Shown here one piece after another: positions 27,184 through 30,933 of a stretch of DNA of 64,000 nucleotides. The notes under the pieces were generated by a model, which saw only the letters and a list, made by a program, of their open reading frames with translations, had not been told where the DNA came from and did not search any database. Both the position numbers and the translations under genes were made by a program. Location of the stretch: the sequence record PQ356294.1; one strand, 5' to 3'. This DNA is from Escherichia phage Ec_YwIITB1. The first letter of the stretch is position 1; each line of letters begins with the position of its first letter.

Positions 27184-27372
27184 TTAATAATCTATTGGTA
27201 AGAGAGTACGATATATTTCAAACTTTGGACCTTTTTCATAGGTATCAAATGTTTCTGTGAATTTATTATAAGCATATGCATCTATAAATTCAATCATAAT
27301 TTGTGATACAGAAGTAGAAACATCTCCACCTTCTTTTTGAGCCACGACAATTGTTTCTAAATAAGCTTTCAT
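27184..27372 (-). CDS. Hypothetical small protein
   Basis: 62-aa ORF, start overlaps ligase stop (ATGA). Confidence 0.5.
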   Translation of the reverse strand: MKAYLETIVVAQKEGGDVSTSVSQIMIEFIDAYAYNKFTETFDTYEKGPKFEIYRTLLPIDY

Positions 27373-28832
27373 AGACCAGTTACCTCATGAAAATCACCAA
27401 ATACATCCTCGAATGTATTAGCTTTAGTTTTATCTTCACGCAAACGAATCGCAATCGGAAGAAATAATTTAACGTAATCAGTGCGGCCATCAGATTTTAA
27501 CCAACCATTGCATTCACACTCTAGAATTTTTCCAATATAATAATTTTGGTTTTCCATAATGCGAGTACGGTCAAGTTCATGTGATTTTACACCGGCTTTA
27601 TCTTTTAAGCCTGAACCAGCATTTACTTTAATTTTTCCACACTCTGATTCAAGAATAAATCCACCTGCTTTAGTAGGGTCTTTACGGTGAGGATAAATTC
27701 CTACAATTTTTAAATCAACATCAATTACTTCTTTAAATTTATAAAGATTTTTTGAACGAGCATTTTCCCACAATCCATCGGTATTTTTGAGAATAATACC
27801 TTCAAGACCTTGGTCAATATATTTTTTATAAATTACCTTAGCTTCATCTAGATTATTTACTACTTGGTTTTCAATTAAAATTACTTTATCATATCCTGAT
27901 GTCATTTGTTCTAGTTTAGAAAAACGTACATCATATTTTAAACGAAATGCTGGAAGACCGTATATTTCTACCAACGGGACATAATCCCAGACCTGAAACT
28001 TCATGCATTGAGCTTCTTTTTCTGAAATAGTTCCTTTTAAGGATTTATTGGCGATTCCATTAGAAGTAGTACGCGATTCCGCTACTTCGGAGAATTCTTT
28101 AGCTTTACTAATTTCAGGATAAGCATCAAAAAGAAAATCTAGGCCTTCTGGTTCCTTTTTAACCTGCTCATGGTATACCAATTCACCGTCAATTAACACA
28201 CCTTCTGGATGAATCTGGCGAGCTTCAGCAGTCATTTTGATTAACTCTTCCTTAAGAAGATCTAATCCTAGATATTCATTACCAGCTCGTGATAAAAGAC
28301 GAACATCATCTAATTCATCACCTCTGACTTCAGCAAAACATCGAGCTCCATCTGCTTTTAACTGCGCAAAAGCTGGAAACTTAATATTCTTACTAATGCC
28401 TTTTTCATCATAAGAACTTGCCAGCATTTGAGGTTGTTCGGGAATTAAACCTGGCCAAACTTTATTTGCAATAGATACCGAAGCACCACATTCAAGGTCT
28501 CGCATCATAACTCGACGCAAAACTTCAACATCATCCTTTTTACCGTCAGTAATATAACCTACTAATTCCTCAATTGCTGCATTTCCAGTCAATTTCCGAG
28601 TAGCTAACGTGAATTCAATGAAGTCAAGCATATCGGTAATAGTCAGCATCCCAAAACTCTGGGTAGAAATACCAGGTTTAGGCCATTTCTTGATATAATA
28701 CTGTAACCCACGAGAATAAGTCAGACGATATACTCTTTTAAGCAATTCATTATCTTTATTCTTTTCAAGAATTGCTTGCTTCTGCTTAGTTGATCCAATA
28801 GATGCTATTTCATTCAGAATTTTAAGAATCAT
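27369..28832 (-). CDS. 30: ATP-dependent DNA ligase gp30
   Basis: 487-aa ORF matching T4 DNA ligase, KADGAR adenylation motif. Confidence 0.95.
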   Translation of the reverse strand: MILKILNEIASIGSTKQKQAILEKNKDNELLKRVYRLTYSRGLQYYIKKWPKPGISTQSFGMLTITDMLDFIEFTLATRKLTGNAAIEELVGYITDGKKDDVEVLRRVMMRDLECGASVSIANKVWPGLIPEQPQMLASSYDEKGISKNIKFPAFAQLKADGARCFAEVRGDELDDVRLLSRAGNEYLGLDLLKEELIKMTAEARQIHPEGVLIDGELVYHEQVKKEPEGLDFLFDAYPEISKAKEFSEVAESRTTSNGIANKSLKGTISEKEAQCMKFQVWDYVPLVEIYGLPAFRLKYDVRFSKLEQMTSGYDKVILIENQVVNNLDEAKVIYKKYIDQGLEGIILKNTDGLWENARSKNLYKFKEVIDVDLKIVGIYPHRKDPTKAGGFILESECGKIKVNAGSGLKDKAGVKSHELDRTRIMENQNYYIGKILECECNGWLKSDGRTDYVKLFLPIAIRLREDKTKANTFEDVFGDFHEVTGL

Positions 28833-29098
28833 TGCTCATCCTTCAAGGTTTGGTTTACAGCTCTATTATAAATCAATTCATCATTAAGCTCAGTTAAAGA
28901 CCTATGATATGTAGTTCTAACTTTATTTCCTTGCATCCAGTGCTTAATATAAATGAAACCTTGCTCTACACATTTTTTAAAAATTCGTTCGTCTTTTTGA
29001 GCTCTGAATTCTGGATTACATCTAAAGAATTGATTTACGTGACCGTAATCACGTGTAGTATTACCTTCATTTTCATAAATAGTGTGAACGACAAACAT
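28829..29098 (-). CDS. Hypothetical protein (30.1-like)
   Basis: 89-aa ORF, coupled to neighbours. Confidence 0.6.
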   Translation of the reverse strand: MFVVHTIYENEGNTTRDYGHVNQFFRCNPEFRAQKDERIFKKCVEQGFIYIKHWMQGNKVRTTYHRSLTELNDELIYNRAVNQTLKDEQ

Positions 29099-29937
29099 TA
29101 GAATGCTCCTTGGAAAATATTATCACCGCTAGTAGGTCTATTATACAAATACTCTATGCCACCAGGTTTAATATAGTTCCATGTCTGAAACGGATGTGTC
29201 TGATATGGATGATATAGATGATTATAAGGATTAAATCCAGGCGTTCTCCAGGTAGTGTTCCAACGAAAAGAATCGTTTTTAACCATCTTCTCAATTAAAT
29301 CTTTTATAGCTTTTTCACTATCAAAACTTTCTTTATTTTCCTTCGGCGAAAAAAGCTTATTTTCTACATCATTCCATGTATAAACTCGCTGCGCAGTTTT
29401 TGGAATATTGTCACGCTCTCCTCGCGCCATCCAATAAACAGGAACATTTAATATTTCACTCGCATGATCGCAGTGGTGAGCGAGATCGTCAATATAACAA
29501 ATTACGTTATATTTCTCTTTTGCCTTTTTAAACAACTCTTCTTTTGAAGAATCATGACCACACATCATTACTTCTGAGAAGGCACCAGGAAAAAGAGCAT
29601 TCAAATTAAATTGACGATTCAACAGAGCGTCAATAGAATCACCCAATGCTGTGACAGCTACAAAATTATAATCTTCTTTTAATTTGTTAATTACACACAG
29701 TGCATCTTTATATGGAGACAAGTAACGAATAAAATCTGATCGATTATATTTTTCAATTAACTTGACACCAAGTTCTTCATCGCATTTAAATAGTTTACCT
29801 GGAGAAATAAATTTCTCATCTTGGATCATTTTTAAAATATGTTCTAACGGAAGATTATATTTCTGAGCAAAATAAGGAAGACCTGATTGCCAGCTTAAAC
29901 ATACTCCATCAATATCAGTTAAAATAGTAGGCTTCAT
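29098..29937 (-). CDS. HAD-superfamily phosphatase/nucleotidase-like protein (30.2-like)
   Basis: 279-aa ORF; N-terminal DxDGV motif (LTDIDGV) typical of HAD hydrolases. Confidence 0.65.
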   Translation of the reverse strand: MKPTILTDIDGVCLSWQSGLPYFAQKYNLPLEHILKMIQDEKFISPGKLFKCDEELGVKLIEKYNRSDFIRYLSPYKDALCVINKLKEDYNFVAVTALGDSIDALLNRQFNLNALFPGAFSEVMMCGHDSSKEELFKKAKEKYNVICYIDDLAHHCDHASEILNVPVYWMARGERDNIPKTAQRVYTWNDVENKLFSPKENKESFDSEKAIKDLIEKMVKNDSFRWNTTWRTPGFNPYNHLYHPYQTHPFQTWNYIKPGGIEYLYNRPTSGDNIFQGAF

Positions 29938-30392
29938 AGAGAGTCTCTTAATAGGTTTAACACATCAATAAATTCAGCTTCGGTTAGTATTGTATCATCT
30001 TTTGTTAGACCACTAGCCATGCTGTGCTTCAAAACTTTTCCTTTCGAGGCTTGTAATGCATCACGAAAGCCCCTGTTTTGGAACGCTGCTTCAAAATATG
30101 CATTTGTGTATAATTCTTTCCACGCTGGAGAGTATCTTGAAAACGGAACTCCAAGCCAGAAGAGGGTCCCACGGTCCTGAGCTCTAGCATAAGACCTTCC
30201 AGCTTGTTGGGCTGCAAGCCCGGATAACCCAAATATACGTCTTTGCTGTTCAACATTTTTCACCTTACATCCTTGGAGGAATCCTTCGAGACCTCCAAAT
30301 TGAATGTCATCCATAACGAAAGGCCATTGGGCGAAATTACTTAATGCACATGATGGCCATTTAAAATTGCTTCTAATCTCTAACTCAGACAT
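29934..30392 (-). CDS. NADAR (YbiA-like) domain protein (30.3-like)
   Basis: 152-aa ORF; LSNFAQWPF motif resembling YbiA/NADAR FSNFAAWP signature. Confidence 0.55.
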   Translation of the reverse strand: MSELEIRSNFKWPSCALSNFAQWPFVMDDIQFGGLEGFLQGCKVKNVEQQRRIFGLSGLAAQQAGRSYARAQDRGTLFWLGVPFSRYSPAWKELYTNAYFEAAFQNRGFRDALQASKGKVLKHSMASGLTKDDTILTEAEFIDVLNLLRDSL

Positions 30393-30600
30393 CTTTAATA
30401 CTTATAATTTCAATATCAGCCCAATGACCGTAACTTGGTAAACGGTCTTCAATAGATAATCCGCCATCATATTTAAGCATTTTAATTGTCATAATATATG
30501 GCTCTAAATGGTCTTCAGTGAGCGGAGAGACATCAGTCACACGATAAGTAACTTCGACCATTTCCGTGCCCAGTAATTTCTTGATTAATTTCTTAAACAT
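30385..30600 (-). CDS. Hypothetical protein
   Basis: 71-aa ORF in co-directional cluster. Confidence 0.5.
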   Translation of the reverse strand: MFKKLIKKLLGTEMVEVTYRVTDVSPLTEDHLEPYIMTIKMLKYDGGLSIEDRLPSYGHWADIEIISIKDV

Positions 30601-30604
30601 TTTA

Positions 30605-30892
30605 TTAGAACCTCATCTGAAAACCGTGCGATTTAACATTACCGCCGCCAATATCAGAAATGTTAATTTCACACGCAATTGAAGGGTCAATGTCAATTTC
30701 ACGATTGAGTTTAGTGATAGCTAAAGTATCGCGGCCATTTACAGTACGGAACTCTAAAGGACATACTACATTAACGTAGTTTTTAATCGATTCGCTGGTA
30801 GGTTGCAAATGAGCAGGAAGGTCTTTAGGTGCCTTAGAGAAAACCACTTCACAGAAATTTTTGCGGGTGTCAAAATAAGTAGTCATAAACAT
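30605..30892 (-). CDS. Hypothetical protein
   Basis: 95-aa ORF. Confidence 0.5.
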   Translation of the reverse strand: MFMTTYFDTRKNFCEVVFSKAPKDLPAHLQPTSESIKNYVNVVCPLEFRTVNGRDTLAITKLNREIDIDPSIACEINISDIGGGNVKSHGFQMRF

Positions 30893-30933
30893 AGTATTTT
30901 CCTCAGTGAGGGGCCGAAGCCCCTCATTTTATT

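Follow-up and report, generated by a model that had tools for sequence, protein, structure and literature searches.

The NADAR-family proteins of phages have been named 'gp30.3 proteins' and form a clade defined by a histidine in the last strand (PMC11125620, Toxins 2024). In vitro, gp30.3 of phage T4 hydrolyses guanine-ADP-ribose, but not thymidine-ADP-ribose (PMC11125620). The resistance of phages T2 and T4 to DarTG1 was mapped to gene 30.3, which was renamed adfN (PMC11825919, Johannesman et al. 2025). Deletion of adfN sensitises T4 to DarTG1, and AdfN is sufficient to rescue phage RB69; the T4 protein is impaired by the substitutions E36A and K43A or by loss of the C-terminal helix, as with the RB69 frameshift, and purified AdfN strips ADP-ribose from DarT1-modified DNA (PMC11825919). 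In uninfected E. coli, AdfN does not detoxify DarT1 and cannot replace DarG1, and its rescue of non-T-even phages is weak, full activity being observed only during T-even infection (PMC11825919). Because AdfN is inactive against DarT1 in uninfected cells and weak in non-T-even phages, its discoverers proposed a T-even helper. The present analysis concerns adfN and the adjacent gene 30.2, encoding a protein of the HAD superfamily, in a 64,000-nucleotide stretch of DNA from Escherichia phage Ec_YwIITB1 (record PQ356294.1), referred to below as the window. Very probably, AdfN of this phage is a DNA guanine-ADP-ribose glycohydrolase countering DarTG1, and gp30.2 is an independent capped HAD phosphomonoesterase, not needed under laboratory conditions, whose substrate is a small molecule resembling a nucleotide.

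The window belongs to a T4-like (Tequatrovirus) phage. A preliminary description, made from the sequence alone, had pointed to two open reading frames (ORFs), 29098..29937 (279 aa) and 29934..30392 (152 aa), carrying the signatures LTDIDGV and LSNFAQWPF, respectively; both are present exactly as placed, on the minus strand, and are T4 genes 30.2 and 30.3. The 279-aa ORF begins with MKPTILTDIDGVCLSW and has LTDIDGV at residues 6–12, and the 152-aa ORF includes ALSNFAQWPF, with LSNFAQWPF at residues 17–25. A megablast search with region 28800–30650 found 681 phage records, with identity of up to 99%; the matching genomes, those of T4-like coliphages and of Shigella phages, have the two ORFs annotated as 30.2 and 30.3. 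Compared with the T4 reference, 269 of 279 residues of gp30.2 and 147 of 152 residues of gp30.3 are identical. The preliminary description located the pair 'after' the DNA ligase gene; in the direction of transcription, however, both genes lie upstream of it.

The product of ORF 29934–30392 is AdfN, a protein with a NADAR/YbiA fold belonging to the phage gp30.3/AdfN clade. It matches the Pfam family PF08010 (Phage_30_3) with an E-value of 4.9e-68 and a score of 227.7 bits, against a cut-off of 36. The profile of the gp30.3 family matches E. coli YbiA (E 9.6e-4), with the SNFA...E...Q..K residues aligned, and the NADAR family PF08719 was also found in one gp30.3 homologue. Residues E36, K43 and H123 are invariant in an alignment of 36 gp30.3 homologues, and all three are present in the window allele. 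The AlphaFold2 model of the protein has a predicted local distance difference test (pLDDT) score of 93.2 and a predicted template modelling (pTM) score of 0.88. In a Foldseek search of this model against the PDB, the top three matches were YbiA 2b3w (TM-score 0.68), the NADAR of G. lovleyi, 8bat, and the NADAR of P. nicotianae, 8bau; only these three exceeded a probability of 0.9, and the remaining matches had values of 0.05 or lower. The searches with phmmer of the single gp30.3 and gp30.2 sequences against the PDB gave insignificant matches only. The NADAR/YbiA-like assignment in the preliminary description thus holds in the Pfam match, the YbiA profile match and the similarity to solved NADAR structures, and the catalytic residues, the absence of which was to count against it, are in place. 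Matches to gp30.3 are abundant in phage genomes, with more than 1400 found by tblastn.

The closest described protein is AdfN of T4 itself. The window protein is 97% identical to it, has the same length and occupies the same place, between genes 30.4 and 30.2. The two proteins share the catalytic residues E36 and K43, the H123 typical of the phage clade and an intact C-terminal helix, which comprises residues 138–151 in the model of the full-length 152-aa protein. Five substitutions (K11R, D29G, F104I, R106K and M125I) distinguish the window protein from that of T4, none of them at known catalytic positions. In contrast, the RB69 allele is inactive, with a truncated C-terminal helix. More distant relatives, including DarG1 and the G. 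lovleyi NADAR (8bat), the P. nicotianae NADAR (8bau) and E. coli YbiA (2b3w), have the same YbiA fold, with an aligned SNF...E...K active-site motif. However, the last strand of gp30.3 of the window has His in place of the Asp or Glu of these relatives, and DarT1-linked NADARs possess an N-terminal extension that the window protein lacks.

Hydrolysis of guanine-ADP-ribose and protection from DarTG1 are experimental results for the 97%-identical T4 protein and, judging by the sequence, can be expected of the window allele. AdfN would cleave the N-glycosidic linkage that joins ADP-ribose to guanine in DNA, erasing the marks put on phage DNA by the host toxin DarT1, and this removal would let phage replication continue in cells carrying DarTG1. 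The preliminary description proposed that the NADAR protein counters ADP-ribosylation of the DarT type and regarded its function in T-even phages as not established. The former has already been published for T4 gp30.3 (PMC11125620, PMC11825919), and the latter is outdated, as T4 gp30.3 is the published AdfN. Since the activity was demonstrated for T4 both in vitro and in vivo, the central idea was correct but already known; as the function has been published for this gene, the window contributes only one more intact allele.

His-clade NADAR genes of the gp30.3 type were also observed on very large viral contigs of 248–501 kb, with neither a gp30.2-type HAD gene nor a T4-type ligase gene within 10 kb (loci L092, L094, L101, L111, L127, L133, L134, L136, L142, L149, L150 and L152).

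Protein gp30.2 matched no family in Pfam (E ≤ 0.1) or NCBIfam. It belongs to phrog_420 (E 2.9e-92), a group of unknown function, and has weak matches to the phosphoheptose isomerase phrogs and to the polynucleotide kinase phrog_415 (E 0.002). T4-like phages that infect a wide variety of hosts commonly encode homologues (1452 phage records found by tblastn), some of the 30.2 records in GenBank being labelled 'putative phosphatase', '5' nucleotidase' or 'HAD-like protein'. A literature search for gp30.2 by name found no paper, and a broader search combining '30.2' with HAD gave irrelevant results only.

The attribution of gp30.2 to the HAD-superfamily phosphatases, as regards both the fold and the phosphatase chemistry, is well supported by motif conservation and by the model, in agreement with the preliminary description, which had called the 279-aa ORF HAD phosphatase-like. 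The four HAD motifs are represented by D8/D10, T96, K132 and D150–D151. In an alignment of 32 sequences, D8, D10, G11 and K132 are invariant and T96 and D150–D151 nearly so; other invariant residues are W16, S18, Y64, S67, Y76, D78, R108, N111 and R172. Among 111 distant representatives found with the gp30.2 profile, D8, D10 and K132 remain invariant, and both D151 and W16 are conserved in at least 90%. The conservation is confined to residues 1–200; the last 80 residues vary between homologues or are missing. Similarly, in the AlphaFold2 model, residues 1–200 have pLDDT values above 90 and the rest of the chain is disordered. The model shows a Rossmann-like HAD core with a C1 cap following motif I; this cap is a helical insert, residues 16–86, between core strands 1 and 2. 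Dehalogenase-type HADs are devoid of the second Asp. From its DxD motif, gp30.2 is expected to carry out Mg2+-dependent phosphoryl transfer via an aspartyl-phosphate intermediate; it would act as a Mg2+-dependent phosphomonoesterase, the helical C1 cap enclosing a small substrate.

The tail of gp30.2 is aromatic and proline-rich, with pLDDT values below 50. Near its C-terminus, it contains the motif GIEYLYNRPT, and the pattern G[IV]EY[LWY]xx[RQ]PT occurs 6–10 residues from the C-terminus in 15 of 100 gp30.2 homologues, 54 of which are at least 250 aa long. This motif may serve as a docking site for a replication or repair partner. In several homologues, the gp30.2-like HAD domain is fused to other regions. 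The N-terminal part of P0242 (591 aa) has a GDLDI nucleotidyltransferase-like motif, the C-terminal part of P0231 (365 aa) has a ParB-like GRHR motif, and the extensions of P0305 (660 aa) and P0193 (430 aa) have no Pfam match.

Among known enzymes, gp30.2 appears closest to the 5'(3')-deoxyribonucleotidases (NT5C). An exhaustive search with the gp30.2 profile yielded 1471 cluster representatives, 111 of which were scanned against Pfam; 43 of the 111 match NT5C (PF06941), with a best E-value of 4.2e-10, and most of the remaining matches are to generic HAD models. One representative, P0333, passes the NT5C gathering score. In the Foldseek search with the gp30.2 model, the deoxyribonucleotidases 3bwv, 2jao, 2i7d, 4yih, 4mum and 1q92 had the lowest root-mean-square deviations and the highest target-normalised TM-scores. 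The family profile matches mouse cytosolic 5'(3')-deoxyribonucleotidase (cdN, 2jao) weakly (E 0.028), and this alignment places the invariant W16 on a Phe located eight residues after the nucleophile. The aromatic base-stacking residue of these enzymes, Phe18 in cdN and Phe49 in mdN, lies eight positions after the nucleophile. On the other hand, gp30.2 differs from cdN, mdN and the bacterial NT5C-like proteins (PF06941; 2jao, 2i7d, 1q92, 3bwv) in that it is itself below the Pfam NT5C threshold, has an extra 80-residue disordered tail and belongs to a family with its own invariant R108, N111 and R172. By analogy with these related enzymes, the substrate of gp30.2 is most probably a nucleoside monophosphate; the location of a distant clade of the family near nrdA/nrdB and the clamp loader agrees with an affinity to NT5C.

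The genomic context of both genes was assessed in related loci from IMG/VR (±10 kb), scored with local profiles, 75 around gp30.2-type and 80 around gp30.3-type genes; all linkage figures are counts in these sampled loci. A T4-type ligase gene is adjacent to the gp30.2-type HAD gene in 70 of the 75 loci, in either gene order, and the adjacency persists where the order is reversed, with the ligase gene preceding the HAD gene (e.g. L062, 8408–10585, and L067–L072). A gp30.3-type NADAR gene lies within 10 kb of the HAD gene in 32 of the 75 loci. Around gp30.3-type genes, the HAD gene was found within 10 kb in 21 of 80 loci and the ligase gene in 20 of 80. On contigs common to both sets, the HAD and NADAR genes are 47–91 kb apart, as in genomes of 167,773 bp and 171,175 bp. 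The locus search for the more distant relatives of gp30.2 was seeded with a six-sequence subclade (A4), the diversity of the 111-sequence alignment (A3) being too great for this purpose. No NADAR gene was found in the 80 loci of a distant HAD clade from environmental T4-like contigs; the neighbours there are nrdA, nrdB and the genes of the clamp loader, PhoH and a PD-(D/E)XK nuclease. Ligase genes are rare in these loci (3 of 80) and, where present, lie about 250 bp downstream. Thus, the HAD gene is stably associated with the ligase gene and a block of replication and nucleotide-metabolism genes and is not linked to the NADAR gene. The adjacency of 30.2 and 30.3 in T-even phages very probably results from local gene order and not from joint work of the products. 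Two further arrangements were seen. In L097 (9908–11756), which lacks a HAD gene, the NADAR gene and the start of the DNA ligase gene overlap, and in L130 (8736–10456), which has no ligase gene nearby, the order is divergent HAD gene, two small ORFs, NADAR gene.

Published transposon data for T4 bear directly on the roles of these genes. In the HIDEN-SEQ screen, an independent study (2025 preprint 10.1101/2025.11.20.689424, Data S6), a control was compared with DarTG1, apparently with one library per condition, and only genes 30.3 and 30.4 were significant. Insertions in 30.3 (28 TA sites) were lost, with a mean of 261.0 in the control and 0.7 on DarTG1 (log2 fold change −7.25, adjusted P 0). 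The means for 30.4 (21 TA sites) were 375.9 and 108.0, respectively (log2 fold change −1.79, adjusted P 0.014), and insertions in 30.2 (71 TA sites) were neutral, with means of 271.5 and 249.8 (log2 fold change −0.12, p 0.61). Gene 30.2 is non-essential in the reference library of the same screen, where 72 of 72 TA sites were hit. Since 30.2 insertions were neutral on DarTG1, gp30.2 is apparently not required for the job of AdfN in T4, which suggests that it is dispensable for DarTG1 counter-defence. As a candidate for the T-even factor potentiating AdfN, gp30.2 was rejected on these data and on the lack of conserved linkage.

Members of the 30.4 family were found in T-even-like loci alone, in every case immediately upstream of the NADAR gene, and if the depletion of 30.4 insertions is not polar, 30.4 could be the T-even helper of AdfN. 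However, the overlap of 30.4 with the adfN start makes a polar effect likely. A more novel reading combines two separate proposals. In the first, gp30.2 would be a phosphatase of nucleotides or 3' ends working in functional association with the phage ligase; in the second, gene 30.4 would provide the factor needed by AdfN, given the same proviso on polarity. We consider this combination possible but rather unlikely.

A narrower proposal is that gp30.2 assists the ligase directly, as an end-healing 3'-phosphatase or by other means, removing the 3'-phosphates that block sealing by T4 DNA ligase. The persistence of the ligase adjacency through changes of gene order, the short distance to the ligase gene in the few distant loci that have one, the weak match to the polynucleotide kinase phrog and a match of one gp30.2 family member to HAD_PNKP speak for it. 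In addition, the T4 PseT and PNKP-type HAD 3'-phosphatases share with gp30.2 the DxD phosphatase chemistry of HAD enzymes and the genomic association with a nucleic-acid ligase. However, gp30.2 is capped and its model gave no PNKP-like fold matches; neither a capless HAD domain open to nucleic-acid ends nor PNKP/PseT sequence or fold similarity was found for gp30.2 when it was assessed as a PNKP-type enzyme. Such a role therefore appears improbable, more so than the combination above.

The preliminary description suggested that the HAD and NADAR proteins act as a pair. In a two-enzyme counter-defence module of this kind, AdfN would free ADP-ribose from DNA, and gp30.2 would dephosphorylate or otherwise process what is released or would itself be the T-even helper of AdfN. 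The two genes overlap by ATGA at 29934–29937, where the stop codon of the upstream 30.3 overlaps the start of 30.2, with no terminator-like site between them; nearly all T4-like phages have both genes, and the host-genus counts of the two agree (tblastn). The full activity of AdfN in T-even infection only (PMC11825919) would also agree with such a module, as would the presence of gene 30.2 in RB69, where ectopic AdfN works. However, overlapping or abutting genes form an unbroken chain, 30.4-30.3-30.2-30.1-30, so the ATGA overlap is nothing specific to this pair. A promoter and terminator scan found no terminator-like site on the coding strand of the whole 30.4-to-30 chain, that is, no internal terminator, and no excess over shuffled sequence. 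The genes are far apart in several sampled T4-like genomes, their proximity is restricted to some lineages and absent from the sampled loci of the distant HAD clade, and the loss of 30.3 insertions on DarTG1 contrasts with the neutrality of those in 30.2. A two-gene anti-DarT module is contradicted by both comparative genomics and the published transposon data and is not supported; the likelihood that remains to it is very small. The evidence points away from gp30.2 as the T-even factor needed by AdfN.

It is just as hard to credit gp30.2 with a part in the economy of nicotinamide adenine dinucleotide (NAD) and ADP-ribose, where it would act, with Alt encoded close by, on a derived molecule such as nicotinamide mononucleotide, ADP-ribose phosphates or ribose-5-phosphate and not on DNA precursors. 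The genes for Alt, ligase, HAD and NADAR proteins do lie close together in some loci, among them those of the T-even and Morganella/Proteus types, and comparative work on bacterial systems has noted that enzymes releasing ADP-ribose are coupled with phosphatases, HAD 5'-nucleotidases among them (PMC9503650); however, most lineages show no coupling of the HAD gene to the NADAR gene, and in the distant relatives the neighbours are nrdAB and replication genes. A link to the riboflavin pathway, in which YbiA and the HAD phosphatase YigB act and which is brought to mind by a JGI record calling one homologue 'FMN (flavin mononucleotide) phosphatase YigB', was rejected, as the DNA substrate of AdfN has been demonstrated.

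The ORF content and the Pfam matches show that the 25–34 kb part of the window is a minus-strand block with the order alt (ADP-ribosyltransferase), 30, 30.1, the 279-aa ORF, the 152-aa ORF, 30.4, 30.6, 30.7, rIII, 31 and cd. The features of the region around adfN are listed in Table 1.

Table 1. Genes and conserved sites in the adfN region of the window
Feature	Position	Strand	Basis or remark
Gene 30, ATP-dependent DNA ligase	27369..28832	-	PF01068, E 1.8e-32; adjacent to the HAD gene in 70 of 75 related loci
Gene 30.1 (DUF3045), between the HAD and ligase genes	28829..29098	-	PF11243, E 1.2e-64
Gene 30.2, HAD-superfamily phosphatase, 279 aa	29098..29937	-	Core and C1 cap, residues 1-200; disordered tail, residues 200-279
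GIEYLYNRPT motif near the gp30.2 C-terminus	29131..29160	-	Conserved short motif in an otherwise disordered tail
HAD motif I, D8-I-D10-G-V (predicted nucleophile and general acid/base Asp)	29902..29916	-	Conservation in 32 and 111 sequences
Gene 30.3 (adfN), NADAR-family DNA ADP-ribosylglycohydrolase (activity inferred from T4), 152 aa	29934..30392	-	Full length
H123 codon, last-strand His marking the phage (gp30.3) NADAR clade	30024..30026	-	Invariant among 36 homologues
E36 codon (30285-30287) through K43 codon (30264-30266), within LEGFLQGCK	30264..30287	-	Codons read directly
Gene 30.4, 71 aa, overlapping the adfN start	30385..30600	-	T4 annotation

Compared with T4, gene 30.5 is missing from the window. 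Gene 30.4 (30385–30600) is directly followed by the 30.6 homologue (30605–30892), with 30.5 intervening between them in T4. The internal out-of-frame ORF 30.3' of T4 is kept inside adfN, at 30029–30256 on the minus strand, and is 75 aa long here. A 10-bp GC-rich hairpin, AGTGAGGGGC/GCCCCTCATT, is located at 30905–30928, in the gap between 30.7 and 30.6; the scan rated it as terminator-like on the plus strand, the non-coding one there, and not on the minus strand.

As a whole, the finding is ordinary and largely already explained. Of the leads that remain, some concern gp30.2, with its substrate, its link to the ligase and the conserved tail motif, and another is the mild phenotype of 30.4 on DarTG1. 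For the biology of T4-like phages, the undoing of DarT ADP-ribosylation of DNA by a phage NADAR is a real counter-defence, published for this very gene in 2024–2025, and gp30.2 is a conserved yet dispensable HAD phosphatase that is found in more than 1400 phage genomes and tracks the DNA ligase gene.

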